Positions 13,446-34,303 of a stretch of 53,686 nucleotides of DNA are shown piece by piece. Each line of letters begins with the position of its first letter. Position 1 is the stretch's first letter. The position numbers were made by a program, and so were the translations under genes. The stretch lies in NCBI GenBank assembly GCA_043750095.1, contig JAYVCF010000246.1, positions 1 through 53,686 on the forward strand. Reading direction: 5' to 3'. Origin of the DNA: Deltaproteobacteria bacterium (GTDB lineage: Bacteria; Myxococcota_A; Polyangia; Polyangiales; Sandaracinaceae). The notes beneath the pieces were generated by a model. The model ran no database searches and had not been told where the DNA came from. It saw only the letters and a list, made by a program, of their open reading frames with translations.

Positions 13446-13527
13446 GGCTCGCGACGGTCTCACGTGCCCCTCGCGATTGCAACGGCCCCGGGATCGAGCG
13501 GCCAAGCTAGATCCGAGCTGCGTCGTA

Positions 13528-13576
13528 CGGGTCCGAAGGACCCCCGCGCGCCGCGCCTGCGCGGCGCCAAAAATCA
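13528..13576 (-). repeat. stop-codon-adjacent T-tract plus double-hairpin element, family C, copy 1
   Basis: The minus strand reads TGATTTTTGGCGCCGCGCAGGCGCGGCGCGCGGGGGTCCTTCGGACCC. It starts at the stop codon of 13574..14317. Confidence 0.7.
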
Positions 13577-14317
13577 GCGGCCGGAGCCGGACGGGATGCG
13601 CACCGGCGGGGTGAACACGGGTCCCGTCGGAGCTGCGGCGCGTCGACGGCCATGTCGGCGCGGCGGCGCGGGCGGCGCTTGTTCGTCGAAGTTCTCGTCG
13701 AAGGCGAAGATCTCGTTCGCATCCGGGAACACGAACGTGAGCTGCGGATCCTGCGGTCGCAGCATGGGAGACACCGTCGCGGTCGCGAGGAGCACCTGGA
13801 AGCTCTGCCCGGGCGCCATGTTGAGCGACACGTGCGCGATGCCGCTCGAGTCGGTGCGCGCGACCTCGCGGCCCTCGATCATGACGGGGAGGCCTGCGCG
13901 TGGCGCCGTGCCGGTGCCGCCCGCGCGGATGACCACCACGCCCTGACGCGTGGACGGCAGACACGAGATGGTGACGCGAAAGCCAGGCGCAGGCGCGCCG
14001 CCGACACCGACCGTCGTGCGCAGGACGATGGGCGAGAGCGGGGGCGCGGCGCGGTAGCCTTCGGGACACGTCGCGCTCACGGGGACCGACGTTCCTTCTT
14101 CGCCGGAGAGCTCCAGACGAACGGTTCCGTCGGCGGCCGTCTGCGCGGGCGCTGCGCCTGCGACGGTCACCGTGACACCACCGAGCGGCGATCCCGGGTC
14201 GGACTCGCCGATGAACGTGATCGGAAAGATGGGTGGCGGAGGCGGCTCCTCACAAGCGAGGGCGGTCATGGCGGTGAGAGCCGCGATGAGGAGGCGTGCG
14301 ATTCGCGATCCGGTCAT
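13574..14317 (-). CDS. hypothetical lipoprotein (last gene of the Tad-type cluster)
   Basis: MTGSRIARLLIAALTAMTALAC signal/lipobox with GGAG 9 nt upstream of ATG 14317. Beta-rich body (GGVTVTVAGAAPAQTAADGTVRLEL) and a Pro/Arg-rich tail. Confidence 0.65.
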   Translation of the reverse strand: MTGSRIARLLIAALTAMTALACEEPPPPPIFPITFIGESDPGSPLGGVTVTVAGAAPAQTAADGTVRLELSGEEGTSVPVSATCPEGYRAAPPLSPIVLRTTVGVGGAPAPGFRVTISCLPSTRQGVVVIRAGGTGTAPRAGLPVMIEGREVARTDSSGIAHVSLNMAPGQSFQVLLATATVSPMLRPQDPQLTFVFPDANEIFAFDENFDEQAPPAPPRRHGRRRAAAPTGPVFTPPVRIPSGSGR

Positions 14318-14349
14318 GGCTTGCTCCATTCGCTCGTTCGCGAGGCGCG

Positions 14350-15858
14350 TCAGCGAGTCGGCGTACACTGGCGCCCGTCGGGCCCGATCCCGTTGACACA
14401 CTGAGCAGCTCGGATCCTTTGCTCCAGAATGCCGACCATCGCCGAATACTCGGGACGCTCGGGGTGCTGCATCGCGAGCTGTTGGTAGAGCGGGAGCGCG
14501 TCGCTGTAGCGCCCCGCGAGCACCTGATCGGCGGCGAGACGCTCCGGCGTGGGCGGAAGCGGCAGGCTCGGATCGACCACGGTCGTCGGAGGAGGCGCGA
14601 CGTCGGTCACGGGCGGCGCGTACACCACGCTCGGCGGGGGCTGAACGTAGACGGCGCCCGTCGTGGGCGGATAGGGCGCGATCGCCACCGTCGTCGGCGC
14701 TGCGTAGGTCGGCGGCGGGGCGTACGTGACCGGAGGCACGTAGGCCGTCGGCGGCGGTGCGGCGATCGTGGTGGGCAACGCGAGGGTCGGCGGCGGCGTG
14801 ACGATCTGGTTCGAGTCGTCGACGTAGTCCTCTTCGTCGTCGCTCAGCCCGACCACGGCGAGCACGAGGATCGCGAGCACGAGCGCGCCGACCATCCCCG
14901 CCATGCGCGGCGTGAGACCGAAGGGCAGCTTGGTCGGCTGCTTCACCATCGGAGGAGGGCCCTCGCCGAAGCCCGGCGGCGCTGCGAACCCGCCCGAGGC
15001 GCTGGACCCACCCGGCGCGCCGAACGAGGGCGGCATCCCACCGATCTGGCCCGCCTGCGGCCTCTGCATCTGCATCGGCTGCATCTGCATCGGCTGCGGC
15101 GGCTGCATGCCCATCCCAGGAGCGAGCACGATCGAGGGCGTGTCCGGCATCGCGACCATGCGCGTCGCCTCGCCCACGGCGCCCGCGAGCTCGTCCTGCA
15201 TCAACGTCTTGGCCTGCAGGGGAGCCGCGTCGTTCGGACCACCGAGGCGCGGACGGGAAGCAGCAGGCGGCGGCGGCGGCGGTCCGCCGAGCTTGGGCGC
15301 TCCGCCGATCGAGGGAAGTCCCGCTGGCCCATCGAGCGGCGAGTCCTGGATGCGCGTCGCCTCGCCCGTGAGCGAGGGAGCGTCCCAGAGCGGCCCGTCG
15401 GTCATGCGCGTCGCTTCACCGGTGAGATCGGCGATGTTGTGCTGACCACTCGGCCCTTCGGCCGGCGAGACGCGGCGTGCCGACGCAGGATCGGGAAGCG
15501 CGATCGCTTGCCCATCCGACGTCTCGATCGCTACCGCGGCCTGACCGAACACCACCTCGCCCCGACCGCGAACCTGCGTCCACTCGCCGCCGAGCGGAGC
15601 GCCGTTGAGCGAGACGCCGCCGACACGCTGGGTGTCCGCGACGAAGAGGCAGCGGCCGTCCCAGTAGAGCTCGAAGTGCATCGGTCGCACGCCCGGCCCC
15701 TGCACGGCCCAGCCGGCGCTCGGATCACTGCCGATCGCGAGCCGCGCCTGCGGATACTGCTGGTCGATCTCCCAGACGCCGCCTGTGGATTGGCCTCGTG
15801 TGAGCCGAACCTTCGCCCAGCTCTTGCCGCCTTGCACCGCTTGTCCCGGAACCGCCAT
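14350..15858 (-). CDS. FHA-domain membrane protein (FHA, Q/M/P-rich linker, TM helix, Pro-rich periplasmic region, TPR-like end)
   Basis: 502 aa. N-terminal FHA-like core (RLAIGSDPSAGWAV..VRPMHFELYWDGRCLFVADT..VSLNGAPL). TM helix MVGALVLAILVLAVVGL. C-terminal helical repeat (RYSDALPLYQQLAMQHPERPEY). Confidence 0.75.
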   Translation of the reverse strand: MAVPGQAVQGGKSWAKVRLTRGQSTGGVWEIDQQYPQARLAIGSDPSAGWAVQGPGVRPMHFELYWDGRCLFVADTQRVGGVSLNGAPLGGEWTQVRGRGEVVFGQAAVAIETSDGQAIALPDPASARRVSPAEGPSGQHNIADLTGEATRMTDGPLWDAPSLTGEATRIQDSPLDGPAGLPSIGGAPKLGGPPPPPPAASRPRLGGPNDAAPLQAKTLMQDELAGAVGEATRMVAMPDTPSIVLAPGMGMQPPQPMQMQPMQMQRPQAGQIGGMPPSFGAPGGSSASGGFAAPPGFGEGPPPMVKQPTKLPFGLTPRMAGMVGALVLAILVLAVVGLSDDEEDYVDDSNQIVTPPPTLALPTTIAAPPPTAYVPPVTYAPPPTYAAPTTVAIAPYPPTTGAVYVQPPPSVVYAPPVTDVAPPPTTVVDPSLPLPPTPERLAADQVLAGRYSDALPLYQQLAMQHPERPEYSAMVGILEQRIRAAQCVNGIGPDGRQCTPTR

Positions 15859-15923
15859 CGGACTCGTCGTTCATCCTACGTTGAAGGTCGCTGAGAGGCA
15901 CGAACCTCGGTTGTACGGGGCGT

Positions 15924-15973
15924 GGGTGCCCGAAGGGCCCCACCGCGTCGCGCCTGCGCGGCGCAGAAATCTA
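15924..15973 (-). repeat. stop-codon-adjacent T-tract plus double-hairpin element, family C, copy 2
   Basis: The minus strand reads TAGATTTCTGCGCCGCGCAGGCGCGACGCGGTGGGGCCCTTCGGGCACCC. It starts at the stop codon of the second cpaF paralogue. Confidence 0.7.
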
Positions 15974-17143
15974 GTGTCCGCCACCAGCGCCCTGATCGTC
16001 TTCGGGCTGCGCACCGTGCTGCGCGCGGTGCTGAGCCGCATGATAGATGATGTCCGGAATCTCGAGGCCGTGTCCACGGATCTCCTCGGTGACCTTCGGG
16101 ATGAAGCCGGTGGGCTCGAACGTGGAGAGCACGCGCCCCTTCTCGTCCTCCCCGTGGTAGCGCCGGATGAACACGTTCTCGAGGTGGTAACCCTTGGCCG
16201 GGTCGTAGCCTTGGACCTCGGCGATGTGCGTGACGCAGCGCGAGCCGTCGCGAAGGCGTGACGTCTGCACGATCATGTCGACGGCGCTCGCGAGCTGAGC
16301 GCGGAGGGCCACGAGCGGAAGCGCGATGTCGCTCATCAGGCACATCGTCTCGAGCCGGTTCAGCGTGTCCGTCGGGTACGTGGCGTGGACGGTGGACATG
16401 CAACCGCCGTGACCGGACGTCATGGCCTGCACGAGATCGAGCGCCTCGCCTGAGCGAATCTCACCGACGACGATGCGATCGGGACGCATGCGCAGCGTGG
16501 CCTTGAAGAGATCGCGGATCGTCACCGCGCCGCGGCCTCGAACGTCGGGAGGTCGCGCCTCGAGCTGCACGACGTGCGGCTGCTGGCACTGCACCTCTTT
16601 GCTGTCCTCGATGATCACGATGCGATCGTCGTCGGGGATGAAGCCGGTGAGCGCGTTGAGCAGCGACGTCTTTCCGGAGCCCGTGCCGCCGGCGACGATC
16701 GTGTTGTTCTTCACCAGGACGACCTGGCGAAGGAACTGCGCCGCCTCGGGCGTGAACGAGCCGAAGCCGACGAGCTTGTCGATCGTCAGCGTCTCGCGAA
16801 AGAAGCGACGGATGGCGACGTGGGGGCCTTCCGGCGCCGCGGGCGGCAGCACGGCTTCCACGCGCGAGCCGTCGGGGAGCCGCCCTTCGAGGATCGGCCG
16901 CTGCTCGTCGACGTGACGACCCACGAACTGCGCGAGGTTGCGGAGCGCGGCCAGGAGCGCCTCGCGGTTCGCGAACTTCGCGTTGGTGAGCGTGAGCTTG
17001 CCCTTACGCTCGATGTAGATCTGGCTCGGGCCGTTGATCATGATCTCGCTGACGCTCGCGTCGTCGAGGAACGGCTTGATCGGCTCGAAGAACTTGATGA
17101 GCGTCTGCTCGTAGACGTCCTTGCCGAGGGTCTTGCTGCTCAT
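15971..17143 (-). CDS. CpaF/TadA-family secretion ATPase, second paralogue (no FHA domain)
   Basis: 390 aa. Walker A GGTGSGKTSLLNAL, Asp box RIVIIEDSKE, Walker B RPDRIVVGEIRSGEA, His box SGHGGCMSTVHA. Colinear with the ATPase half of 20644..22506. Confidence 0.9.
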   Translation of the reverse strand: MSSKTLGKDVYEQTLIKFFEPIKPFLDDASVSEIMINGPSQIYIERKGKLTLTNAKFANREALLAALRNLAQFVGRHVDEQRPILEGRLPDGSRVEAVLPPAAPEGPHVAIRRFFRETLTIDKLVGFGSFTPEAAQFLRQVVLVKNNTIVAGGTGSGKTSLLNALTGFIPDDDRIVIIEDSKEVQCQQPHVVQLEARPPDVRGRGAVTIRDLFKATLRMRPDRIVVGEIRSGEALDLVQAMTSGHGGCMSTVHATYPTDTLNRLETMCLMSDIALPLVALRAQLASAVDMIVQTSRLRDGSRCVTHIAEVQGYDPAKGYHLENVFIRRYHGEDEKGRVLSTFEPTGFIPKVTEEIRGHGLEIPDIIYHAAQHRAQHGAQPEDDQGAGGGH

Positions 17144-17874
17144 GACCGGCCTTCAGGCAATTTTGCGCGTGGCGTACCAGCCTTGTGCGACACGGGGTGC
17201 GACACGGGCGCGCCCCCGGGAGGCGGAGCGGGAGGCGCAACCGGCGGCGGCACCTCGTCCGGCTGGAGGCGCACCGGGACCGGCCCCGTCGGCGTCGCGA
17301 ACAAGCCCAGCGCCTCTCGCGCCTCGCTCGCGTGCGCGCCGTCGGGCGAGAGGGCGAGGTAGCGCTCCATCTGCGCCCGCATTCCCGGTCCGTCGTGCAG
17401 CTCGTCGCGCAGGAGCACGCCGAGCATGTAGTGCGGCACCGCTTCGTCGGGCGCCTCGGTGACCACGTGCTCGAGCGAGAGGCGCGCCGCGGCGGAGTTG
17501 CCGAGGCCCATCTGGATCGTCGCCAGCAGCTGACGCAGGCGCCAGTCGTCCGGGTGCGTCTCGAGGTAGGGCTCCGCGAAGCCGAGCGCCGCCGAGTAGC
17601 GCGAGCTGTGCACGCAGACCTCCATCAAGAGGGGCAGCACCTGGTCCTCGGGGTAGCCGTGATCACGGGCCGCGGTGAAGTACTGCTCGGCGCGAATGTA
17701 GTCGCCCTGGTGCGCGATGCGGACGCCCGCGTCGAAGAGCTGCTGCGCGGTCCGGTCTTCGAGCGGATCGGCGATCGCGGCTTGAGGTGTGACCGATGCC
17801 TGCGCACCTCCGCACCCGACCACGAGCGCGCACGCGAGAGCGCATGCGGCCGCGATCGAACGATGCGGAGACAC
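17140..17874 (-). CDS. TPR-repeat lipoprotein (TadD-like position)
   Basis: Start trimmed to GTG 17874 (VSPHRSIAAACALACALVVGC lipobox). The N-terminal extension in the track (STGVPGSPGRHNCVASA) is a translation of the 73-nt repeat. TPR-like helices follow (AQQLFDAGVRIAHQGDYIRAEQYF...). Confidence 0.7.
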   Translation of the reverse strand: MSPHRSIAAACALACALVVGCGGAQASVTPQAAIADPLEDRTAQQLFDAGVRIAHQGDYIRAEQYFTAARDHGYPEDQVLPLLMEVCVHSSRYSAALGFAEPYLETHPDDWRLRQLLATIQMGLGNSAAARLSLEHVVTEAPDEAVPHYMLGVLLRDELHDGPGMRAQMERYLALSPDGAHASEAREALGLFATPTGPVPVRLQPDEVPPPVAPPAPPPGGAPVSHPVSHKAGTPRAKLPEGRS

Positions 17875-17877
17875 GAT

Positions 17878-17950
17878 CGCGGCCGGAGTCGTCCGCGGAG
17901 CGGACGCGACACAATTGTGTCGGCCCGGCGAGCCGGGCACTCCGGTCGAG
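17878..17950 (-). repeat. 73-nt four-way-junction (cloverleaf) repeat, family A, copy 1
   Basis: The reverse complement reads CTCGACCGGAGT GCCCGGCTCGCCGGGC CGACACAATTGTGTCG CGTCCGCTCCGCGGACG ACTCCGGCCGCG. It lies between the stop of 17952..18818 and the GTG start at 17874. Confidence 0.85.
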
Positions 17951-17951
17951 C

Positions 17952-18818
17952 TCAAACTTCACCCGGTGTCGCGGTGAGAAGCTGGAGCTGGCGTTCCATA
18001 CGCACGAGCCACTGGACGTAGGGGTGCTCGCCGCCGCGCTCGCGCACCATCGCCAGGAGCGCGCGATTCTCGAGCAGCGCATCGTCGTAGCGCTCGAGCT
18101 CGAGCGCGCGCGTCATGCGCAGGCGATGCGTGTCGTAGTCTTCTTGGATGCGGTGCTGCATGTAGTCGCGTTCGCGCTGCATCTCCGTGGCGGGCGCCGT
18201 CGCATGCTGCGCCGTGTAGCAAACCGCCGCGGTGTCGTAGAGCACCACGGAGTCGAGGCCGTCGGCCGGATCGAAGGGATAGCGCTCGCTCTTGGCCAGC
18301 GCCGCTTCGGCCGATTGCTCCGCGCGCGCCATCGCCTGCATCGGATCGGTGACCGGACACGCGCCGAGCGGCGCGAAGAGCGGATAGGGCTCCGGCGCGT
18401 CGGTCTCGAGGCCCGCCGTCTCCGTCCCTTGCAGCGACCAGATCACCACCACCGCGCCCAGCACGCCCGCGATGATCACGAGCGGCGAAGCCTGCCCCTT
18501 GGCCTTGCCCTGTTCCTGCGGCGGTTTGTCGGTGACGCGGAAGCGCAGGCCTCCGATCTCGACCTCGCTGCCCCACTGGACCATGCCGTGCTGAAACGGC
18601 TGGCCGCGCACCTTCGCTTGGATCTTCGCGCCCTGCGCGATCGCGACCCAGCATCCCTCGCCACGCGGGGCGATCAGCAGGTGCTCCGGCTCGAGGTCGC
18701 GCGCGTCGGGAAGCGGGATGCCGGCCGTCGGTGATCGACCGACCGTGATCTGCTCACCCTCGATGCGCGTGCGCTCGAGCGTTCCGTCTTCGCGAATGAC
18801 TTCGACGTAGGCTTCCAT
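17952..18818 (-). CDS. FHA-domain membrane protein
   Basis: 288 aa. N-terminal FHA-like core (ITVGRSPTAGIPLPDARDLEPEHLLIAPRGEGCWV), TM helix PLVIIAGVLGAVVVIW, and a helical C-terminal domain. Confidence 0.75.
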   Translation of the reverse strand: MEAYVEVIREDGTLERTRIEGEQITVGRSPTAGIPLPDARDLEPEHLLIAPRGEGCWVAIAQGAKIQAKVRGQPFQHGMVQWGSEVEIGGLRFRVTDKPPQEQGKAKGQASPLVIIAGVLGAVVVIWSLQGTETAGLETDAPEPYPLFAPLGACPVTDPMQAMARAEQSAEAALAKSERYPFDPADGLDSVVLYDTAAVCYTAQHATAPATEMQRERDYMQHRIQEDYDTHRLRMTRALELERYDDALLENRALLAMVRERGGEHPYVQWLVRMERQLQLLTATPGEV

Positions 18819-18856
18819 GGTGTTTCTCCGATAGCGACTTCGCTATGGCTCCCTGA

Positions 18857-19759
18857 CTACATCGCTCCACTCTGGCTGACCTGGACCATGAAGGGCCCGA
18901 GCAGACAGAGGATGATCGCGCCGAAGATCAGCATGAGCGGGCCCATGAGGAGAAGCGCGGCGCGCGCGGCGGCCTCCTCGGCCATGACCGAGCGGCGCAT
19001 GCGCAGCATCGTCGCTTGGATCCGAAGCACCTCGGCGAGCGGGTTGCCCTTCTCTTCCGCCTGGACGACCGCACCGACGAAGTCCCGCACGGACTCGGTG
19101 GGCACGCGATCGGCGAAGTTCTCGAGCGCCTGACGGCGCGTACGGCCGAGCTCGAGCTCCTGCAGGAGCCGCTCGAACTCCTCGACGAGCGAGTCGTTCT
19201 TGTTGCCGGCCTTGTCCACGATCTGGCGGATCGCCCCTGGAAAATCGAGACCCGCGCCCATGCAGAGCGAGGCGAGATCGATCGACTGCGGCAGCGAGCG
19301 GTTCACTTCCTTGAAGCGCCGATCGCGCTCGCCGGTGACCTGGAAGTACGGAATGAGCGCGCCGATCGCGCCGAAGATGACGCAGAAGATCGGCGGCGAC
19401 TCGCTCACCGTGAGAACGACGAGACCGATCAACGTGCCGAAGATCCCGCCGATGACCGAGAGCGAATAGAACTCGTTCGGTGTCATGCCGAGCCAGTCGC
19501 CGGCATGCTTGAGCAGCTCGTCCATCTGGCGCCGCTGATCGGTGAGCGGGAAGTATGCGATCCAGCCCGCCATCATCCGGATGAGCGGCTCGAACGAGAC
19601 GAACGTGCCGCCCGCCTCGATCGCGCGCTGGCGCTTGAGACCACGCGCACCGAGGCGCGGCGAGTCCTCGGGCTTGTTCCCGCCGAGCGTGGCCACGGCC
19701 AGGAACATCCCGGTTCCGACCATCAACATCGCAATGTAGGCGTATCCGCGTGCCGGCAT
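18857..19759 (-). CDS. tadC: type II secretion system F family platform protein (TadC-like)
   Basis: 300 aa polytopic membrane protein with a T2SSF-type cytoplasmic domain. It occupies the third position after the ATPase, as in tad loci. Confidence 0.8.
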   Translation of the reverse strand: MPARGYAYIAMLMVGTGMFLAVATLGGNKPEDSPRLGARGLKRQRAIEAGGTFVSFEPLIRMMAGWIAYFPLTDQRRQMDELLKHAGDWLGMTPNEFYSLSVIGGIFGTLIGLVVLTVSESPPIFCVIFGAIGALIPYFQVTGERDRRFKEVNRSLPQSIDLASLCMGAGLDFPGAIRQIVDKAGNKNDSLVEEFERLLQELELGRTRRQALENFADRVPTESVRDFVGAVVQAEEKGNPLAEVLRIQATMLRMRRSVMAEEAAARAALLLMGPLMLIFGAIILCLLGPFMVQVSQSGAM

Positions 19760-19768
19760 GCTCGCCCC

Positions 19769-20647
19769 CTAGATGTCCACGGAGAGAATTCGTCGCGCGA
19801 GAACGATCGCGACGAACCAGAGTACCGTGGCCACGGTGATGATGATGTAGCCGAGGTTCGTCTCGACCAGCGGCCGCAGCCAGGTGTTGTCCATGTAGTG
19901 AATCATCCCGAGCAGCGCGAACGGGATCACCGCGAGCACGACGACCTGCATCTTGCCTTCGGCCGTCTTGGTACGAACGACGCCCTCGAGGCGCGCCATC
20001 TCGCGCAGCGTCCCGGCGCTCGTCTCGAGGATGTTCGGCAGATCGCCGCCCGTCTGACGACCGACCAGGACCGTGGCGAGACAGCTCGAGATGATGCGGC
20101 TGTTCACGCGCCGCGACATGTTGAGCACGGCCTGATCGAGCGGCGTGCCGAGCTTCATCTCCTTGAGCACGAGATCGATCTCTTCCGAGAACGGCGGGCG
20201 GATCAGCTTGGCGCTGTTCGAGATCGCCTCACCGAGGGAGGGCGAGGCCTTGAGCGCGTTGGCGAGCATCAGGAGCCAGCTGTCGAGCAGCTCTTCGAGC
20301 TTGCGAATGCGCTCGTCGTGCTGGTTCGCCATGTAGAAGTAGGGCCCGACGAAGACGGGGATCTCGATCAAGAGCCAGATGGGGTCGTTGATGAGGAATG
20401 AGATGACCGGGATCGCGAGGATCACCGCGAGCTGCGTGCGCGCGATGGCCTTGCCCGTGGTCTTCCAGAGCTGGAAGCGCACTTCCTTCTCGAGCAGGTC
20501 CTCGTACTCCGCGAAGCGCACGCGCGGCCACGTGGTGGGGTCGGTGACGACGAAGAACACGAACGCCACGATGCCGCCGACGGCGAGGAACAAGCCGCCC
20601 CAGCCGAGCAGCTCGGTCGAGGCGGTGACGGTCAGAAGCGACGTCAT
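19769..20647 (-). CDS. tadB: type II secretion system F family platform protein (TadB-like)
   Basis: 292 aa polytopic membrane protein with a T2SSF-type domain (LPNILETSAGTLREMARLEG). 4-nt overlap with the upstream ATPase gene. Confidence 0.8.
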   Translation of the reverse strand: MTSLLTVTASTELLGWGGLFLAVGGIVAFVFFVVTDPTTWPRVRFAEYEDLLEKEVRFQLWKTTGKAIARTQLAVILAIPVISFLINDPIWLLIEIPVFVGPYFYMANQHDERIRKLEELLDSWLLMLANALKASPSLGEAISNSAKLIRPPFSEEIDLVLKEMKLGTPLDQAVLNMSRRVNSRIISSCLATVLVGRQTGGDLPNILETSAGTLREMARLEGVVRTKTAEGKMQVVVLAVIPFALLGMIHYMDNTWLRPLVETNLGYIIITVATVLWFVAIVLARRILSVDI

Positions 20648-22506
20648 AGGTACTCCCCGTCGGTGATGAGACCCATCGTGATGAACTCGTCGATGAACGT
20701 CGGCATGTAACCGCTCGCGCGGTGCTCGCCGAGCACCTTACCGCCAGGGCCGGTGCCGGTGCGCACGTACCCGAAGATCTCGTGGAGCTCGAGCTCGCCG
20801 TCCGGATCCATGCCGACGATCTCCGAAATGCTCGTGACCCGACGCGAGCCGTCGGAGAAGCGCGTCTGCTGGATGATCATGTCGACGCTGGTGGCGATCT
20901 GCTCGCGGATGGCCTTCGCCGGAAGATCGAGGCCGGCCATGAGGCAGAGCGTCTCGAGGCGCGCCACGGCCTCGCGCGGGCTGTTCGCGTGCGTCGTCGT
21001 CATCGAGCCCTCGTGGCCCGTGTTCATCGCTTGCAGCATGTCGAGCGCCTCGCCACCGCGGCACTCGCCGACGAGGATGCGGTCGGGGCGCATGCGGAGC
21101 GCGTTCTTCACGAGGTCTCGGATCGAGTACTCGCCCTTGCCTTCCATGTTGGCGGGGCGCGTCTCGAGCGAGACGACGTGCGGCTGGCGCAGCTGCAGCT
21201 CGGCCGCGTCCTCGATGGTCACGATGCGCTCGTCCTCGGGGATGGCGCCCGAGAGCACGTTCAAGAGCGTCGTCTTGCCCGAGCCCGTGCCGCCCGAGAT
21301 GACGATGTTCTTCCGCGCCTTGACGGTACGCGTGATGAAGCGCGCCATCTGTTCGGTGATCGCGCCGAAGCCCACGAGGTTCGTGAGCGTGAGCGGGTTC
21401 TTCGCGAACTTGCGGATCGTGATGCACGAGCCCTTGATCGCGAGCGGCTTGATGATCGCGTTGACGCGTGAGCCGTCCTTCAAGCGCGCGTCGACCAGAG
21501 GCGTGGACTCGTCGATGCGCCGGCCGAGCGGCGTGACGATGCGCTCGATGACCGATCGCACGGCCTCGTCGTCGGTGAAGCGGAGCGCGGTGAGCGAGAT
21601 CTTGCCCTTGCGCTCCACGTAGATCGTGTGCGGATCGACGACCATGATCTCGCTGACGGCTTCGTCGGCGATCAAGCGCTCGAGCGGGCCGAGGCCGAGC
21701 GCCTCGTCGGCGATCTCGTCGATGAGCGCCGCCGTGTCCGTCCCTTGCGGGAAGTCGTGGGCGAGCTCGTTCATCAAGCGGCGGAGCGCAGTGCGCACCT
21801 TGGGCCGCATGATCTTCTCGTCCATCTTGTTGCGATCGAGAGACGCGAGATCGAGGTTCTCGAGCAGCATGCGGTGGATGCGCTTGCGCATCTCGACCGG
21901 CACCATCGCGGTGCCCGACACGTCGTAGGGTCCCTGCTCGCTCTTCTTCTCGACCTTCGCGGGCGGAGGAGGAGGCGGCGGAGGCTGCGGCGCGTACGCC
22001 TGCTGCGGCGGCTGCGCGTAGCCCTGCTGTGGTTGCTGCTGCTGCTGCGGGTAGCTCGGCTGTTGCTGCTGCGGAAAGCCGCTCTGCGGCGGCTGCTGCT
22101 GTTGCGGGTAACTCGCCTGCTGCGGGTAGCCGGCCGTGGGCTGCTGCCCGTAGCCCTGCTGCGCGTAGCCCTGCTGCGGGGCACCGAACTGACCGACGCC
22201 CGGCGTGAGCGCCGCGATCGGCCTGACGATGTAGGGGCCCACGCGCATCGGCACGTTCGCGCCCACCTGCACGGTCGTCTGCCGAACGCGCTGGTTGCCG
22301 ACCATCGTGCCGTTCGCGCTCGAGTCCGTGACGAGGAACATGCCGCCCGTCGTCGCCTCCACCGCGAGGTGGCGACGCGAGACGTCGGGCGACGGAAGCA
22401 CGACGTGGCACGAGGGATCGCGCCCGATCGTGACAGGCCCCTGCACGTCGACCGAGAGCTGCTCGACCGTCCCGTCCTGCAGTTCGATCGCGAGGTTCAG
22501 CGCCAC
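20644..22506 (-). CDS. cpaF: FHA-domain-fused CpaF/TadA secretion ATPase
   Basis: 620 aa, GTG start. Canonical FHA (VTIGRDPSCHVVLPSPDVSRRHLAVEA..DSSANGTMVGNQRV), then an 80-aa Q/P/Y-rich linker, then a CpaF core (GGTGSGKTTLLNVL, RIVTIEDAAEL, RPDRILVGECRGGEA, TGHEGSMTTTHA). Confidence 0.92.
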   Translation of the reverse strand: MALNLAIELQDGTVEQLSVDVQGPVTIGRDPSCHVVLPSPDVSRRHLAVEATTGGMFLVTDSSANGTMVGNQRVRQTTVQVGANVPMRVGPYIVRPIAALTPGVGQFGAPQQGYAQQGYGQQPTAGYPQQASYPQQQQPPQSGFPQQQQPSYPQQQQQPQQGYAQPPQQAYAPQPPPPPPPPAKVEKKSEQGPYDVSGTAMVPVEMRKRIHRMLLENLDLASLDRNKMDEKIMRPKVRTALRRLMNELAHDFPQGTDTAALIDEIADEALGLGPLERLIADEAVSEIMVVDPHTIYVERKGKISLTALRFTDDEAVRSVIERIVTPLGRRIDESTPLVDARLKDGSRVNAIIKPLAIKGSCITIRKFAKNPLTLTNLVGFGAITEQMARFITRTVKARKNIVISGGTGSGKTTLLNVLSGAIPEDERIVTIEDAAELQLRQPHVVSLETRPANMEGKGEYSIRDLVKNALRMRPDRILVGECRGGEALDMLQAMNTGHEGSMTTTHANSPREAVARLETLCLMAGLDLPAKAIREQIATSVDMIIQQTRFSDGSRRVTSISEIVGMDPDGELELHEIFGYVRTGTGPGGKVLGEHRASGYMPTFIDEFITMGLITDGEYL

Positions 22507-22615
22507 GTCTGTTTCACCTGTGCAACCTCGACTGCGGGAGGTGCCCTACGTCGTACGGGGGTCGCGGGGAGGCGAAGCCCCTCGCCCCCGCGCGCTCGCG
22601 CGGGAAAACACAGCG

Positions 22616-23770
22616 TCACTCGAAGCCGGGCGGCGAAGGCTCGATGAGCTCGATGTCCCCCAGGCCGTGACCGCCGATGGTGCCGTACTCCTCGTACACG
22701 TGGAGCGCCTCGGTGATGCGATCCGCCTGCGCGCGCGGCACCGACTGCACGACCGTCGGCACGATGAAGAGGAAGTTCTCGATGCTCTCCTCGTGACGCA
22801 CGTTCGTTCCGAAGAGCACGCCCACGATGGGAATCTGGCTGAGGCCCGGCAGGCCGCCCTGCGACTCGTGCGTGCTGCGCGACACGAGGCCGCCCAGCAC
22901 GATCGACTGGCCGAGCTCCATGTTCACGAGCGTCGAGAGCTGCGTGCGGATGCGGCCCGGGATGGGTCCCGACACCGGCGGCGTGAGCTCGCTGACGTCG
23001 GCGGCGATCGAGACCTCGATGCGGCGCGTGTCCGGATCGTAGTGGGGCGTCATCTGGATCTGCGTGCCGAACTCGATGCGCTGCACGCTCTGCGTGAAGC
23101 CGGTCTGCACCAGGATGTTCACCTCGCCGCCGGTGTTGATCACCGACTGCTCGCCGTTCGCGGTGACGACCATGCCCTGACGAATCAAGCGCGCCCAGCC
23201 CGCCGACTGCGCGAGGTCGAGGCGCGGCAGCGCCTGCTGGAGCAACGACGCCGTCGCCTGCTGGAAGGGCGCCGTGTCGAGCGCGGTGAGATCGACGGTG
23301 AGGTCGAGCTGCGCGCGGCCACCGATGCTGCCCGGCCATGCGATGCCGAGCGAGTGATCGTAGGTCGAGGTGAGCTGCACGAAATAGAGGTCGAGGCGGA
23401 TGTCGTCGCGCGCGACGACCTCGCCCGTGCGAGCCGTGACCGTGTGGGTGCGGACGATGACCTGGTAGCGCGTCTGGTGACCATCGGCGTAGATCAAGAG
23501 CAGCGAGGTCTCGCCCGACTCTTGGCCGACGATGACGAACGTGCGTCCGTCGGCGGTCAGACGAACGTCGGCGATGCCCTCGGAGCCGACCGAGTAGCTC
23601 GCGACGTTCGCGGCCGACACGGTCTCCTGCTCACCGACGTCGATCTCGATGCGCTCACCACCGGCCGTGGCGCGTTGCGCGGAGGCGGTCAGAGGAGCGA
23701 GCGCGAGTGCCACGACCATCAAGGCAATCGCGGAACGGAGAAGCCCAGTCTTGGAAATTTCAGTGGACAC
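22616..23770 (-). CDS. cpaC: CpaC/RcpA-type outer-membrane secretin
   Basis: 384 aa with a signal peptide ending TASAQ. Secretin C-domain motifs are present (GQSIVLGGLV, GLPGLSQIPIVGVLFG). GTG start. Confidence 0.88.
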   Translation of the reverse strand: MSTEISKTGLLRSAIALMVVALALAPLTASAQRATAGGERIEIDVGEQETVSAANVASYSVGSEGIADVRLTADGRTFVIVGQESGETSLLLIYADGHQTRYQVIVRTHTVTARTGEVVARDDIRLDLYFVQLTSTYDHSLGIAWPGSIGGRAQLDLTVDLTALDTAPFQQATASLLQQALPRLDLAQSAGWARLIRQGMVVTANGEQSVINTGGEVNILVQTGFTQSVQRIEFGTQIQMTPHYDPDTRRIEVSIAADVSELTPPVSGPIPGRIRTQLSTLVNMELGQSIVLGGLVSRSTHESQGGLPGLSQIPIVGVLFGTNVRHEESIENFLFIVPTVVQSVPRAQADRITEALHVYEEYGTIGGHGLGDIELIEPSPPGFE

Positions 23771-24584
23771 GTTGGGGCACCACGGCTGCTGCGGTTGTGG
23801 GGGGAGGAGACCGCGGGACGGTGTGCTGACGCGTCTCGCGGCGCTCGGGCTCGATGATGTCGTCGGTGGTCGTCTCGGGCAGGCCCTCGATGACCGTGAT
23901 GTCGTCGGGATGGCGCAAGAGAAGCGTGAGACGCCCGCGCTGCTGCGAGAACGCGAGCAGCTGGGCTTGCTCGACCGTCGTCGAGAGCGTGACGTCGTTC
24001 ATCTGCGTCGGCGCGCGCGCGCTCGCCGCGCGCTGGATGGCGCCCGTGTCCTGCCCCGCGGCGAGCACGAGCAGGTTCTGGAGCAGCGCGATGGTGACGC
24101 GATCTTCGTCGAGCGAGATCGTCGGGCCCGCCGAAGGGCGCGTGAGCGTCATCAGCACGTCCACGCGATCGCCCGGGCGCACGAGGCCGCCGAACGTCGC
24201 GCTCTGATCGGCCTGGATGGTGATCGCGCGCATGCCGTTGCGGACCAGGCTCGAGAGATCGCGCGAGGTGTCGGTGGTGGTCGAGAGGTCGGTCCAGAGG
24301 ATCGACTCGCCCGCTCGGATGCCGCTGACGACGCGGACACCCATGACCCGCTCTTGATCCGCGACCGTGATGTGCCGGTCCTCGAGGTACGCGGCCGGGA
24401 GCTCGCGGGCGACGATCATCGTCTCGTCCAGTGCGACACCGAGCGGGATGTCCTGCACGGCCGTGAGAACGAGGATGGGCTCACCGCCCGACGCCTCGTC
24501 CTCGAAGCGCTGCATGTACAGCCCGAGCATCACGATGCCGAGAACGGCGGCGCCGACCGCGGCCAAGATGGCTTTGGTATTCAT
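23760..24584 (-). CDS. cpaB: Flp pilus assembly protein CpaB (SAF/RcpC domains)
   Basis: 274 aa. N-terminal TM helix, a SAF-like segment (VLTAVQDIPLGVALDETMI), and an RcpC-like C-terminal half. Confidence 0.85.
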   Translation of the reverse strand: MNTKAILAAVGAAVLGIVMLGLYMQRFEDEASGGEPILVLTAVQDIPLGVALDETMIVARELPAAYLEDRHITVADQERVMGVRVVSGIRAGESILWTDLSTTTDTSRDLSSLVRNGMRAITIQADQSATFGGLVRPGDRVDVLMTLTRPSAGPTISLDEDRVTIALLQNLLVLAAGQDTGAIQRAASARAPTQMNDVTLSTTVEQAQLLAFSQQRGRLTLLLRHPDDITVIEGLPETTTDDIIEPERRETRQHTVPRSPPPTTAAAVVPQRVH

Positions 24585-24657
24585 GCGAGCCCGCAGCCTA
24601 TCCGATCACGGCCGAGGGCTGGAAGGGGGATCTCCGCGTAGCGGAAACAACGCGTGC

Positions 24658-25689
24658 CTAGTTGCAGCTACCGTTGTCGCAGGCCTGCTCCCAGCCCGTG
24701 GAGTCGCTTCCGCCGTGATAGCGATAGTTCGCAGCCTGCAAGGGCATCGCGGCCTCGGCCGTGATGGGCACGAAGCGCGGGATCGGCCCGCCCGCCAGCT
24801 GCGAGATGCCTGCGACGAGCACGAGCACGTTCAGCGCGTTGCCGAGCTCGTTGATGCGGGGCGTCCAGCGCGTGTGCCGCGCGCTGCGTACGTTCATCGC
24901 CGCCATCGCGTCCTGGAACTGCTGGATCGTCAGGTCGCCGCGGGCGAAGGCCGACGCGAGCCCTGCGATCGCGCCTGCATCGACGCCCGTGCGCATGTAG
25001 ACGAGGTCTTCGCACATCAGGCGGTTCGCGAGCGGGATCTGGCAGTTGTAGAGGTACGTGACGCGTGCGATCAGCTGACCGGCATCGCCCACCGCATCGG
25101 GCGCCGCGAAGTCCGTGTTGTAGCTGGAGGTGCTGCCGCCCGCCTGAGGGAACGTCACGCGCATCGCCATGCTGTTGTAGACGATGCCCCACGCGACGCG
25201 CGCCTCGGGCGAGTCGAAGCCGGTCATGCCGAGACCACCGCGCACGCTCTCGTCCTGAGGCAGGCGAGCGATCGAGAGCGGCGAGGGCGAGAGCGGAAGG
25301 AGCGGCATCCCGGCGGCGAACTCGACCGCCTGCAGGCGTGCGCCGCCGGTCCACTGCGGGCCCGAGCCGCCACCGCTGCTGCCGAAGAAGCGGCCGATGA
25401 GACCACCCGCCGTCTGAACGAAGCTCGACATGCCCGTCGCGGTGGTGTTGAGCTGGCGACGCGCCTCGTCGTCGTAGTACTGCGGGTCGTCGTCCATCAC
25501 GACCATCGCCGCGCGCGCGGCGACGTTGGCCGAGTGCTGCACGACGAGGCTCGCGCCGTAGAGCAGCCCCATCTGGAGCATGCCGAGGAACATGAAGAAG
25601 AGCGGGATGAACGCGAGGAGGAACTCGACGTAGACCGCTCCTCCCGTGCTCCGAAGCAGGCCCGTGTCTCTGAGGATGCTCTTCTTCAT
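24658..25689 (-). CDS. TadE/TadG-like pseudopilin/assembly protein
   Basis: 343 aa. The N-terminus GGAVYVEFLLAFIPLFFMFLGMLQMG matches the TadE-type hydrophobic segment with the conserved E. Confidence 0.7.
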   Translation of the reverse strand: MKKSILRDTGLLRSTGGAVYVEFLLAFIPLFFMFLGMLQMGLLYGASLVVQHSANVAARAAMVVMDDDPQYYDDEARRQLNTTATGMSSFVQTAGGLIGRFFGSSGGGSGPQWTGGARLQAVEFAAGMPLLPLSPSPLSIARLPQDESVRGGLGMTGFDSPEARVAWGIVYNSMAMRVTFPQAGGSTSSYNTDFAAPDAVGDAGQLIARVTYLYNCQIPLANRLMCEDLVYMRTGVDAGAIAGLASAFARGDLTIQQFQDAMAAMNVRSARHTRWTPRINELGNALNVLVLVAGISQLAGGPIPRFVPITAEAAMPLQAANYRYHGGSDSTGWEQACDNGSCN

Positions 25690-25717
25690 CGTGTCCTCAC
25701 GCGGGTGACCGGAAAAC

Positions 25718-26266
25718 TCAGAATTGTCCGCGGACGCGGCCGAGGACGGTGATCAAGAGCCCGGCGAAGATCGCGCCGCCGAGCCGGAGAGTGTCGCGCA
25801 GTTCCGCGCTCAAGGGGCGGCGGAGGCGCTTGGGAAGGATCGGGTTCACGCCCATCATCACGACGTTGCCGAGCGTACGAAAGAGCCTGCCGTCCCACGC
25901 GAGCCTGCCGAGCGAGTAGATGCCGGCGACGACGAGCGCGAGCAGCTCGGCTTGAAGCCCGAGGTCCGGGCCCACGAGGGCCGCGATCGCTGCGAAGAGC
26001 TTCACGTCTCCGCCTGCCATCCCGTTCATGTAGAACATGATGACCGGCACGAGACCGCAGATCAGAACGCCGAGCATGACTCCGAAGAACGCCTCCCAGC
26101 CGTACGCGAGCCCGTATCCGATGGGCGCGACGACGAGAGGAGGGAGCGTCAACCAGTTCGGGATGTGACCCGTCCGGTAGTCCGTGAGCGCTCCGATCCC
26201 TGCCATCAGCAAGGCCAACCCGTACACGTACGGCATCAGCTCGGGACCGGGATCGTACGCGAACAC
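25718..26266 (-). CDS. cpaA: A24-family prepilin peptidase (CpaA/TadV-like)
   Basis: 182 aa polytopic protein with two catalytic Asp contexts (GALTDYRTGHIPN and MAGGDVKLFAA). Confidence 0.85.
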   Translation of the reverse strand: MFAYDPGPELMPYVYGLALLMAGIGALTDYRTGHIPNWLTLPPLVVAPIGYGLAYGWEAFFGVMLGVLICGLVPVIMFYMNGMAGGDVKLFAAIAALVGPDLGLQAELLALVVAGIYSLGRLAWDGRLFRTLGNVVMMGVNPILPKRLRRPLSAELRDTLRLGGAIFAGLLITVLGRVRGQF

Positions 26267-26324
26267 AAACCGCTCCTAGGAGACAGTCGCCAGCGGGGGA
26301 CAGAGCGCTCGCCGAGGACGAGCC

Positions 26325-26351
26325 GGGACGCCTGCCCGCGACAGGCGTCCC
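26325..26351 (-). terminator. 10-bp GC hairpin between flp1 and cpaA (attenuator/partial terminator candidate)
   Basis: GGGACGCCTG-CCCGCGA-CAGGCGTCCC, 14 nt downstream of the flp1 stop on the minus strand. No U-tract. Confidence 0.4.
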
Positions 26352-26364
26352 CGATCGACTCAAA

Positions 26365-26559
26365 TCACGGGGTGGACGAGGTCGGAAGACCGTTCACGAC
26401 GCTCTCTGCGCCGCGCGTCTTGGTCTTCACCGTGTTGCCGAACTTCTGCCAGATAGCGAAGCCGACGACGGCGATGAGGCAGAGGATGATGATGTACTCG
26501 ACGGTCGAGAGACCGCGGGTGTCAGCGAGGAGCGAGCGAATCCGGCGGGTCTTCATCAT
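26365..26559 (-). CDS. flp: Flp-family type IVb/c pilin
   Basis: 64 aa. Flp motif G/LSTVEY followed by a hydrophobic helix (IIILCLIAVVGFAIW). The leader is 16 aa. Confidence 0.9.
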   Translation of the reverse strand: MMKTRRIRSLLADTRGLSTVEYIIILCLIAVVGFAIWQKFGNTVKTKTRGAESVVNGLPTSSTP

Positions 26560-26624
26560 GGTGGTCTACCTTCTCTTTTTTCGTGTGGTTTGCGGGAGAA
26601 ACAGGAACGGAAACTCGGGTGAGC

Positions 26625-26885
26625 TCAAGGAATCGGCAGGCCGACGACGAGCTGCGCGACGCGATAGAGGTGAACGAGCGGCGCGCCGAGGGTCACGACC
26701 GCCGCCGATCCACCGAGGATGACGACGCAGATCAGCGTCAGATACTCGACGAACATCGCGCCGCGCGAGTCGCGCGCGAGCTCGGCTGCACCCTGGGTGG
26801 TGCGTCCGACGAGCAGGGCGCTCGGCCCTTCCGCGACGCTCGCCTTCGCAGCCTTCCCAGCCTTGCGCGTCTTGGTGTTCGTCAT
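26625..26885 (-). CDS. Flp-family pilin paralogue with long basic leader
   Basis: Start trimmed to ATG 26885, with GAAGGA 7-8 nt upstream. Flp motif RG/AMFVEY plus hydrophobic helix LTLICVVILGGSAAVV. The predicted leader is 42 aa. Confidence 0.75.
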   Translation of the reverse strand: MTNTKTRKAGKAAKASVAEGPSALLVGRTTQGAAELARDSRGAMFVEYLTLICVVILGGSAAVVTLGAPLVHLYRVAQLVVGLPIP

Positions 26886-26897
26886 GTGGGGGTCCTT

Positions 26898-26914
26898 CTG
26901 CGACGAGCGTGCCA
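26898..26914 (-). promoter_or_regulatory. sigma-54 (-24/-12) type promoter match directly upstream of the flp2 start
   Basis: The minus strand reads TTGGCACGCTCGTCGCA, against the consensus TGGCACG-N4-TTGCW. GG and GC have correct spacing, and the GC lies about 14 nt before ATG 26885. Confidence 0.45.
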
Positions 26915-27017
26915 AAACGGCCGACCTGATCGCAAGGTCGAATTCACGCCTGATCCCCTTTCGGACCCGCACCGCTCTGGTCAGCAGGCCCCACGATCGC
27001 GCGCCACGGTGGCGCGC

Positions 27018-28400
27018 TCATCGCGGTGCTGGGGTCTCCGGAGCGGCACCGCGTCGGGCGAACAGATAGAGGAGCAGGCCGACGACGATCGACAGGCTCC
27101 CCCAGATGGCGACCGTCGGGTCGTACGCGATGGCCGCCACGATCGCGCCGAGAGAGAGCAGCACGAACGCGATGGGCGTGAGCGGATAGCCCGGGGTCCG
27201 ATACGCATGCGGCGGCGCTCCTCGATGACGAACGACGAGCACGCCCGCGACGGTCAGCGCCGACGAGAGAGACAGCGTCACGCCGACCGAGCCGAGCAAG
27301 ACGTCGAAGCTCGAGGTCAGAATCATGACGGCCGCGAGCAGGACCTGCACGACGAGCGCGACACGCAGCGGCGCGATCTTGCCGAGCACCGCGTGGTCTC
27401 GACCCATCGCCGCGTACACGCGCGTGCCCGTGAGCACGAAGGCGCCGATGGTCGAGAGCAGGCCGAAGGCGATCATGCTCGAGAGGATGCGGCCGGCGGT
27501 CGCACCGAAGAGATGCGTCGCCGCGACGTGCGCGATCTCCAGCTGAGCGAGCTCGTCGCGCGGTGCGGCCGCGAGGAAGAGCGCGTTCAGCGCGAGGTAC
27601 ACGAGCGTGACCGCGAGCGTGCCGAGTCCGAGCGCGCGAGGAAGCGTGCGCGGCGCATCCTCGATCTCGCCGCCGACGTACACGGCCGCGTTCCAGCCGG
27701 TGTAAGCGAACGAGACGAGCACGATGCCGAACGCGAACGAGGGCTCGGCGATCTCGGAGACACGCATCGGCGGATCGAGCAGGCGCGCGGGCTCGAGCGA
27801 GGGCGAGAACACACCCGCGATCACGAAGAGCACGGCGAGCGCGAGCTTGCCGAGCGTGAGGAGATCCTGCGCACGCAGCGTGAAGACGTGCTCGCGGGCG
27901 TGCGCGAGGGACACGATGAGGACGATCCCGAGCGCGACGGGCAGCTCGATCGCGGCGAGCGCAGCGCCCTCGATCCCGAGCGCCCTGCCCGCGTAGCGCG
28001 CGAACGCGATCCCGCAGGCCGCGATGGGCGCCGCGAACCCGAGCACGATCGAGGCGATGCCGGCGACGAACCCCACCGATGGATGAAACACGCGAGACAG
28101 GAGCGCGTACTCGCCGCCGCTCTCGGGATAGATGCTCGCGAGCTCTGCGTACGAGAGCGCACCCGCGAGCGAGAGCAGCCCCGCGACGAGCCAGACGGAG
28201 AGGACCCCGAGCGGCGTGCGTCCTTCGGCGAGCATGAGGCCGCTCGTCGTGTAGACGCCCGTCCCGATCATGCTCGCGACGACGAGCCCGCTCGCCGAGC
28301 CGAGCCCGAGCTTCTGCGCTCGACCGGAGTGCCCGGCTCGCCGGGCCGACGCAATTGTGTCGCGTCCGCTCTGCGGACGACTCCGGTCGAGATCGCTCAC
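27018..28400 (-). CDS. APC-superfamily amino acid/polyamine permease
   Basis: About 12 TM helices. N-terminal signature KLGLGSASGLVVASMIGTGVY. The only start upstream of that signature is GTG 28400, which overlaps the P450 TGA and forces translation through the 73-nt repeat. ATG 28271 is the alternative start. Confidence 0.8.
   Translation of the reverse strand: MSDLDRSRPQSGRDTIASARRAGHSGRAQKLGLGSASGLVVASMIGTGVYTTSGLMLAEGRTPLGVLSVWLVAGLLSLAGALSYAELASIYPESGGEYALLSRVFHPSVGFVAGIASIVLGFAAPIAACGIAFARYAGRALGIEGAALAAIELPVALGIVLIVSLAHAREHVFTLRAQDLLTLGKLALAVLFVIAGVFSPSLEPARLLDPPMRVSEIAEPSFAFGIVLVSFAYTGWNAAVYVGGEIEDAPRTLPRALGLGTLAVTLVYLALNALFLAAAPRDELAQLEIAHVAATHLFGATAGRILSSMIAFGLLSTIGAFVLTGTRVYAAMGRDHAVLGKIAPLRVALVVQVLLAAVMILTSSFDVLLGSVGVTLSLSSALTVAGVLVVRHRGAPPHAYRTPGYPLTPIAFVLLSLGAIVAAIAYDPTVAIWGSLSIVVGLLLYLFARRGAAPETPAPR
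28319..28391 (+). repeat. 73-nt four-way-junction repeat, family A, copy 2
   Basis: CTCGACCGGAGT GCCCGGCTCGCCGGGC CGACGCAATTGTGTCG CGTCCGCTCTGCGGACG ACTCCGGTCGAG. It lies between the P450 stop and the conserved N-terminus of the permease. Confidence 0.85.
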
Positions 28401-31294: not shown

Positions 31295-31513
31295 CGAGGG
31301 CCTGAGTTTCGCACGATCCTAGCTTCGACCACGTAGTTCGAGGGGCCTTGGACCCTCAATTGGGGCCTCGTGGCCACGGCTCGCGCACCACGAGCGATGC
31401 ACGATGATTCACTACGAGCGCCCACACATTTGGGGTTTCGAGCCAAGATGTCGTTGATCGATTGCTCAGACGCAGGGCACCATGCGGAGAGCAATGACGC
31501 ACTCGAGGTTCGA

Positions 31514-34303
<2,790 letters not shown>

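Follow-up and report, generated by a model that had tools for sequence, protein, structure and literature searches.

The DNA examined here, referred to as the window, is a 53.7-kb stretch from a Sandaracinaceae (Polyangiales) myxobacterium with ~69% G+C. Between positions 13574 and 26972 it carries fourteen open reading frames (ORFs), all on the minus strand, which probably encode a type IVc (Tad/Flp) machine of the FHA-CpaF class represented by the Kil system of Myxococcus xanthus, equipped with a conserved accessory module, an FHA-gated motor and a second motor ATPase, CpaF2. Membership of the Tad/Flp family follows from the presence of prepilins and a prepilin peptidase, of a CpaF/TadA ATPase (best PDB match, CpaF) beside separate tadB and tadC genes, and of CpaB/RcpC together with a secretin. 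The FHA-fused ATPase, the short secretin and several FHA proteins are Kil-like, but two ATPases are encoded where Kil-like systems have a single one. CpaF2, mentioned only in passing in an earlier note on this DNA, is the feature that departs most from published systems. It belongs to a separable module of four to five genes (g10–g14) which is conserved with the Tad core. Descriptions of Kil already include an FHA-fused ATPase, FHA partners and the lack of TadZ, whereas the conserved CpaF2 module, the degenerate membrane FHA folds and a shared threonine motif have so far not been described.

In the proposed mechanism, the A24 peptidase would process two Flp prepilins and a TadE-like pilin, and FHA-CpaF would dock on the TadB/TadC platform and power polymerisation through CpaB and the secretin. 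As no TadZ is encoded in the window, motor engagement is assigned to the canonical FHA domain of the motor, which would determine where and when the motor engages by binding a phosphothreonine of a partner protein. The best candidate for this partner is an EAT(R/V) motif in the cytoplasmic linker of the bitopic protein g13. The degenerate FHA folds of g13 and of a second bitopic protein, g10, may serve as phospho-independent inner-membrane scaffolds, like the cytoplasmic domains of YscD/PrgH in type III secretion systems, and their periplasmic domains together with the two lipoproteins g11 and g14 would connect the platform to the secretin. CpaF2 would most likely alternate with FHA-CpaF on the same platform, standing to it as PilT does to PilB.

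CpaF2 and the conserved accessory module

CpaF2 (15971–17143; T2SSE, 196 bits) consists of NTD2 and CTD only, in the domain nomenclature NTD0, NTD1, NTD2 and CTD used for CpaF (PMC11300603). Its alignment is confined to residues 147–490 of Caulobacter crescentus CpaF, which correspond to these two domains, and CpaF2 therefore has neither the disordered NTD0 nor the three-helix NTD1, nor does it have an FHA domain. Across 67 sequences, the catalytic motifs (Walker A, the acidic residues of the Asp box, the Glu of Walker B, the His of the His box and the arginines) are conserved without exception, and 112 of 390 alignment columns are invariant. CpaF2 is 47% identical to the core of the neighbouring FHA-CpaF, while its orthologues share 63–96% identity across 80 loci. 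The possibility of a recent duplicate or a pseudogene was rejected, since the protein is about equally distant (~44% identity) from every reference CpaF, including its neighbor, and its motifs are intact. In a neighbour-joining (NJ) tree of CpaF alone, the CpaF2 orthologues form a branch separate from all CpaFs with 100% support; the deep nodes of this tree (184 columns) reach 23–48% support, and it is superseded by the 480-column concatenate described below. Of the best 150 matches to CpaF2 in a library of 1.84 billion representative proteins (50% identity clusters), only about five are more than 55% identical to it, and the family is therefore narrow. The top-scoring representatives are proteins of 831–1605 amino acids (aa) with two to four CpaF-like stretches, which may reflect ATPases fused in tandem or gene calls that were merged.

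Tad pili appear in the current literature as machines with a single ATPase (PMC11300603, PMC6920026, PMC12019362), and no account of a Tad or Kil locus with two ATPases turned up in literature searches, which is not proof of absence. The pair of motors resembles PilB and PilT of type IVa pili, in which an assembly ATPase of full length, with regulatory domains at its N-terminus, is likewise paired with a shorter, N2-like/catalytic paralogue. In contrast to PilT, however, CpaF2 is a member of the CpaF family (325 bits to C. crescentus CpaF) and not a PilT orthologue (47 bits against the PilT family model), and a division of labor in the Sandaracinaceae locus is hypothetical. CpaF2 could thus be a dedicated second motor, most plausibly a retraction ATPase, whose origin, through loss of the regulatory domains at the N-terminus, was independent of that of PilT, and which swaps with the FHA-gated motor on one TadB/TadC platform; in this complete form the proposal is speculative and should be regarded as rather unlikely. 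If true, Polyangiales would hold the first machine of the Tad/Kil class with a PilB/PilT-like division of labor, contradicting the view of a single bifunctional ATPase in Tad pili. A CpaF paralogue which is free of regulatory domains, catalytically intact and fixed in a whole order offers a natural test of motor directionality, and this test is feasible because the locus is present in Sandaracinus amylolyticus, which is both cultured and sequenced.

A scan for CpaF2 across one genome per species yielded the 80 loci, all of them labelled Polyangiales, other myxobacteria or deltaproteobacteria, and most also carry FHA-CpaF core genes. Where enough upstream DNA was available, the genes run in the order of the window, CpaB-secretin-FHA-CpaF-TadB-TadC-g10-g11-CpaF2-g13-g14, in 52 of 65 loci. 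The complete genome of S. amylolyticus (DSM 53668; CP070225, ~8.03–8.05 Mb) shows this layout too, as do two further genomes that were retrieved separately via FHA-CpaF. The best matches of FHA-CpaF come from S. amylolyticus and from metagenome-assembled genomes of Sandaracinaceae, which reach 96% identity.

The module includes two lipoproteins. The first, g11 (17140–17955), matches TPR_19, TPR_9 and TPR_14 and has an invariant GC(GG) lipobox, in agreement with its earlier designation as a TPR lipoprotein. It may be a TadD-like pilotin; comparison with PDB sequences returned generic TPR matches and no specific match to TadD. The second, g14 (13574–14317), has an invariant lipobox Cys and two Ig/CarboxypepD_reg-like beta-sandwich regions with conserved Cys residues; the family gives weak matches to Big_1, MG4 and CarboxypepD_reg. 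By tblastn, g14 was found in 42 of the 63 loci with enough downstream DNA, and comparison with the Myxococcus MXAN_4653-type lipoprotein revealed nothing similar beyond the signal peptide.

The pilus machine, its relatives and its possible function

All fourteen ORFs show the third-position GC bias typical of coding sequence, and together with the Pfam assignments this bears out the full co-directional Tad set proposed previously. Genes overlap by 4 bases at 20644/20647, 17952/17955 and 17140/17143 and by 11 bases at 23760/23770, which points to a single translationally coupled transcription unit. A promoter and terminator scan of positions 12900–27400 gave nothing beyond shuffled expectation. 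The pilins, the TadE-like protein, g10, g13 and g14 were assigned to no NCBIfam family.

The most upstream gene, g01 (26625–26888), encodes a Flp-type, KilK-like prepilin with a long leader and could be extended to a GTG start at 26972. It has zero Pfam matches, and the Flp motif G/xxxxEY (slash, cleavage site) was read directly, with predicted cleavage at DSRG/AMFVEY. Orthologues are present in several retrieved loci (L002–L005, L015 and L044). The C-terminus of g01 ends in GLPIP, and both ends can be compared with those of the S. amylolyticus pilin (RG/VVFVEY...SLPIP) and of M. xanthus KilK (G(Q)/AMLEY...NLPFP; L081:7122–7349). The LP(I/F)P tail conserved among the three proteins was missed by BLAST and Pfam. 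The second Flp prepilin (26365–26559, 64 aa), in which the motif RG/LSTVEYIIIL was likewise read directly, stays under the Pfam cut-offs for Flp_Fap (17.7 bits) and DUF4244 (20.3 bits) and is 96–100% identical in L002–L005. Of the earlier assignment of two Flp pilins, the motif thus stands in both proteins, while Pfam places one below cut-off and does not match the other.

The prepilin peptidase (25718–26266, 182 aa) is of the A24, CpaA/TadV/KilA type; Peptidase_A24 (50.2 bits) is its sole domain, as in a dedicated peptidase without a methyltransferase domain. An overlapping ORF at 25686–26363 was rejected as the peptidase gene because GC analysis by codon position identifies it as an Arg-rich wrong frame, leaving 25718–26266. 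This gene is followed by that of a large TadE-like minor pilin, remotely KilM-like (24658–25689, 343 aa; TadE N-terminal motif, 27.3 bits), and by CpaB/RcpC, a homologue of KilB (23760–24584), with SAF and RcpC domains (RcpC, 86.6 bits). The secretin of the CpaC/RcpA/KilC type (22616–23770, 384 aa) is short: no domain other than T2SS-T3SS_pil_N (38.6 bits) and Secretin (91.9 bits) was found, the absence of N0 being judged from this domain scan. The KilF-like, FHA-fused CpaF/TadA motor (20644–22506; FHA, 55.3 bits; T2SSE, 220 bits) contains, in order, the FHA domain (residues 1–95), a Q/P-rich linker (~100–185), NTD1, NTD2 and CTD, so that the FHA-CpaF fusion with a long linker is also as first described. 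Its stop codon is overlapped by 4 bases by the start of the gene for the platform protein TadB (KilG homologue, 19769–20647), which is followed by that for TadC (KilH homologue, 18857–19759); both carry T2SSF domains.

The relationship to other systems was examined by NJ in 480 columns covering CpaF, TadB and part of TadC, taken from a published supermatrix to which the window and eleven related loci were added. The Polyangiales form a clade (83.5% support) which is sister to the Kil-like systems of Bradymonadales (83.5%). Both fall into a larger group (40% support) with Myxococcus Kil, Bdellovibrionales and beta-/gammaproteobacterial systems, apart from alphaproteobacterial Cpa and Desulfovibrio-type systems. 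The Bradymonadales systems, exemplified by the Kil-like Tad locus DN745_00680–00700 of Bradymonas sediminis (Seef et al., 2021, Supplementary file 2; PMC8460266), share with the window a single locus in the order CpaB-secretin-ATPase-TadB-TadC, but the concatenated columns are ~46–47% identical. The Tad systems of C. crescentus and Aggregatibacter actinomycetemcomitans have in common with it the Flp pilins, the A24 peptidase, the TadE-like pilin, CpaB/RcpC, the secretin, CpaF/TadA, TadB/TadC and a TPR lipoprotein, which may correspond to TadD. They differ by the presence of TadZ/CpaE, which the window lacks, by a disordered CpaF NTD0 in place of the FHA domain, by one bifunctional motor as opposed to two CpaF-family ATPases, and by the absence of extra FHA-fold membrane proteins; identity over the concatenated core columns is 33–37%.

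Whether such a machine kills prey or adheres cannot be read from the sequence. A pilus for adhesion or surface sensing, with no role in predation, is a serious possibility, though it falls short of being probable; FHA-CpaF would then mark a broad Tad subtype and not killing. FHA-fused CpaF is also annotated from Gammaproteobacteria, Ramlibacter and Candidatus Thiodiazotropha, and on a contig of the latter (L086:3254–10227) the genes for a TadG-like protein, CpaB, a secretin of 386 aa and FHA-CpaF run in the order seen here. Since these features occur in non-predatory gammaproteobacteria, FHA-CpaF and a short secretin are not markers of predation, and their use as such calls for caution. The position of beta-/gammaproteobacterial systems within the same super-clade as the Kil-like ones is consistent with a non-predatory role. 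The same holds for the lack of a large TadG/KilN-type gene in the window and its nearest relatives: in M. xanthus, the tip that contacts prey is formed by KilN-type proteins (PMC12075869), and where a gene of this type does occur, it lies between the TadE-like gene and cpaB. S. amylolyticus and two further relatives carry three extra genes at this position (encoding 436–744, ~180 and ~330 aa; L083:3919–7763, L084:3166–6906, L085:4083–6899) which match the M. xanthus tip genes positionally, and the window (24584–24658) and its closest relatives (L001–L009) have a gap of 74 bases there. On the other hand, the lineages of the nearest characterized relatives, Myxococcales, Bradymonadales and Bdellovibrionales, are all predators (PMC8460266), and the tip genes may sit elsewhere, as they do in M. 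xanthus.

FHA folds, phosphothreonine and the absence of TadZ

No ParA/MinD-type family match was obtained among the 14 products and the ~35 other ORFs of the window, and the deviant Walker A motif KGGxGK[ST] is absent from every frame of the window, whose three P-loops belong to CpaF, CpaF2 and a YchF GTPase. As the Walker A motif of TadZ is atypical (PMC6668835), the family scans are stronger evidence than the motif scan. The absence of CpaE/TadZ, originally stated for the cluster, therefore extends to the whole window, although a copy may exist elsewhere in the genome. This absence had been listed in the earlier note, together with the FHA-ATPase fusion, as a departure from the canonical tad/cpa layout; neither is peculiar to this locus, given that both are common to Kil and at least the fusion also occurs in gammaproteobacterial Tad loci.

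Three proteins of the locus contain an FHA fold. In the motor, the residues GR...SxxH...SxNGT are invariant in all 48 aligned sequences (46 orthologues and two Myxococcus FHA references). The bitopic protein g10 (17952–18818) has a degenerate, YscD/PrgH-like FHA fold, one transmembrane segment and a helical periplasmic domain of ~150 aa with two invariant Cys residues. Its 69 orthologues are 285–298 aa long, except for one of 335 aa. Although the g10 of the window alone remains under the Pfam cut-off, 27 of 37 orthologues match Yop-YscD_cpl and six match FHA, and the family profile matches the FHA structure of Mycobacterium tuberculosis FhaA (3po8, E = 1.4e-7). In g13 (14350–15858), a degenerate FHA fold (Pfam FHA, 21.2 bits against a cut-off of 20.7; family profile against 3po8, E = 6.6e-10) is followed by a disordered linker, a transmembrane segment, a Pro-rich region and a C-terminal TPR-like hairpin with a Cys pair. 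A single hydrophobic segment follows the FHA fold in each protein, and by hhalign the N-termini of both align to the canonical FHA domains of Myxococcus MXAN_4649/4648-type proteins. The three FHA calls are thus all supported by hidden Markov model searches, the two weaker ones at the family level, and the fold assignments of g10 and g13 rest on such profile evidence.

The phosphothreonine-binding residues tell a different story for the two membrane proteins. In the g10 pocket, Arg is found in 16 of 37 orthologues, Ser is replaced by A or E, and no conserved Asn occupies the SxNG position; in g13, GS stands in place of GR, and both Ser and Asn are missing. Judged by its residues, the motor FHA domain is a canonical phosphothreonine-binding domain and g10 and g13 are not, leaving the motor as the only plausible phosphothreonine reader of the locus. 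The g10 and g13 domains look like structural FHA folds of the YscD/PrgH kind. Accordingly, the two bitopic FHA proteins recognized initially retain their fold but not the canonical phosphothreonine-binding residues.

The linker of g13 (residues ~145–240) bears the conserved threonine motif EAT(R/V)(M/I), which occurs in three copies in the window. The forms found there are GEATRM, GEATRI and GEATRMVAMPD, while remoter orthologues have EATVIR. A Myxococcus MXAN_4649-type protein (L081:11754–13208) carries EEATRPIR and PDATRPIR between its FHA domain and the transmembrane segment.

The earlier note had suggested that phosphothreonine signalling, and not TadZ, controls assembly or positioning; with three phosphothreonine-binding FHA domains, Ser/Thr-kinase signalling would take over the role of TadZ, and the same proposal was made for Kil by analogy with the type VI secretion system (Seef et al.; PMC8460266). 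The canonical FHA domain on the motor and the threonine motif in g13 would fit this scheme, as would a gene for a Ser/Thr protein kinase with PEGA domains (31337–34306, plus strand, 989 aa), which lies 4.4 kb upstream of the cluster, separated from it by genes for an amino-acid permease, a P450 and a HATPase-like protein. The scheme is nevertheless weakened to the point of being doubtful, as the residues that bind phosphate (Arg, Ser and Asn) are missing from two of the three FHA folds and none of the loci examined contains a kinase or phosphatase gene in the conserved cluster. The PEGA kinase carries little weight because it lies outside the synteny examined and myxobacteria encode so many kinases that one found 4 kb away means little. 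With the motor FHA domain as the only plausible phosphothreonine reader, the g13 threonine motif and the similar motif of the MXAN_4649-type protein narrow the FHA signalling cascade proposed for Kil, so far unspecified, to one testable interaction.

Module linkage and comparison with the Kil system

Several points weigh against an FHA-gated, two-motor machine of the Kil-like class. The conserved cluster has no kinase of its own, the nearest being the PEGA kinase 4.4 kb away; the link between the motor FHA domain and the g13 threonine is drawn from motif conservation, and the residue three positions after this threonine (V, R or A) is not a typical FHA preference. The node joining Polyangiales to Myxococcus Kil has 40% support in the 480-column tree. 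As for the second motor, C. crescentus CpaF performs both extension and retraction alone (PMC11300603, PMC6920026), and retraction, the leading guess for CpaF2, is suggested by the analogy with PilT. The resemblance of g10 and g13 to MXAN_4649/4648 is limited to the FHA fold, which makes any equation of these proteins an architectural one. Lastly, 13 of 65 loci carry the g11–g14 module, in some cases including g10, away from the tad core, an arrangement which is also compatible with an independent function.

This last point leads to the idea that the module (g11–g14, with or without g10) constitutes a separate envelope machine or regulator that is merely co-located with the pilus genes. The detached copies stand beside unrelated divergent genes, and the module has membrane proteins and lipoproteins of its own. 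In the 52 syntenic loci, however, it directly follows tadC on the same strand, with 4-base overlaps at the junctions in the window, and it has no T2SSF platform, secretin or pilin of its own, all of which a CpaF-type hexamer needs. As the CpaF2 family is narrow and mostly accompanied by FHA-CpaF core genes, an independent machine seems improbable, and the module is more readily understood as part of the Tad machine.

The Kil system of M. xanthus is encoded in two clusters, MXAN_3102–3108 and MXAN_4648–4661 (Seef et al., 2021, PMC8460266; Herrou et al., 2025). It comprises a Tad-like core with the FHA-fused KilF and a short secretin without N0, as well as many FHA proteins, but has a single ATPase and no TadG, RcpB or TadD (PMC8460266). 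The clusters, in which the secretin KilC is short, contain FHA proteins, and no ParA-like gene is listed (PMC8460266 and Supplementary file 1). Two Myxococcus-type loci were read for comparison: the cluster 2 locus L081, with KilB-KilG-KilH followed by FHA proteins of 484 aa and 582 aa (the latter with TPR) and then by xseA, and L082, a partial Myxococcaceae-type contig with KilF-KilD. The likeness to the Sandaracinaceae locus lies in the Tad-type core (peptidase, CpaB, secretin, ATPase, TadB/TadC and Flp pilins), the canonical N-terminal FHA domain on the ATPase, the short secretin, the lack of TadZ/CpaE, the FHA-transmembrane proteins encoded directly after the platform genes, and the combination of a KilK-like Flp pilin with a large TadE-like pilin. 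Kil was thus rightly named as the nearest analogue. The FHA-CpaF core is 60% identical to that of Myxococcaceae-type KilF, while the comparisons with KilB, KilG and KilH yield 29–35% overall (CpaB with KilB, 31%, E = 1e-31; TadB with KilG, 32%, E = 1.6e-38; TadC with KilH, 32%, E = 4.8e-33). By blastp, faint similarity is seen between the TadE-like pilin and the Myxococcus KilM-type protein (full-length identity 22%, E = 5e-5).

The Sandaracinaceae locus is undivided, whereas the Kil genes occupy two places. Neither in the Myxococcus cluster 2 locus nor beside the Myxococcaceae-type KilF is there a counterpart of CpaF2, of the TPR lipoprotein g11 or of the Ig-like lipoprotein g14, and a second ATPase is absent from both L081 and L082. 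BLAST of g10, g11, g13 and g14 against Myxococcus-type Kil proteins returned no match; g10 and g13 are shorter than the Myxococcus FHA proteins, by hhalign show nothing in common with the MXAN_4649/4648-type proteins outside the FHA domain, and have degenerate pockets where the Myxococcus proteins keep the phosphothreonine-binding residues. Conversely, KilD and the tip proteins of the KilL/KilN type have no detectable homologue in the window.

Tad(kil) homologues were listed earlier for Sandaracinus, Labilithrix, Chondromyces and Minicystis in a comparative study (PMC10196010), and with a g01 pilin resembling KilK at both ends, a remotely KilM-like pilin and FHA accessories placed after the platform genes of a TadZ-less, FHA-ATPase system, the locus could be taken for a Sandaracinaceae orthologue of the Kil contact-killing apparatus, with the same parts and function assembled in one place. 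This is very unlikely in view of the missing and additional genes and of the tree, which groups the locus with Bradymonadales and not with Myxococcus. As a one-to-one claim, Kil orthology is refuted by gene content and low identities. The question left open earlier, orthologue or variant, is thereby settled in favor of a distinct variant.

The remainder of the window contains a few further features. A 477-aa protein (29861–31294, minus strand) shows an unusual combination of a weak N-terminal HATPase_c match with a C-terminal WLM/YgjP-like zinc-metallopeptidase motif. Two genes for class I aminoacyl-tRNA synthetases of the Trp/Tyr type (PF00579) lie within 42 kb of each other (1–708 and 41469–42545, both on the minus strand). 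Near the end of the window, a 588-aa ORF (51625–53391, minus strand) carries MopE-like Cys-rich metal-binding motifs, and a string of short ORFs with high third-position GC lies opposite it on the plus strand (52103–53143), which suggests a repetitive region.

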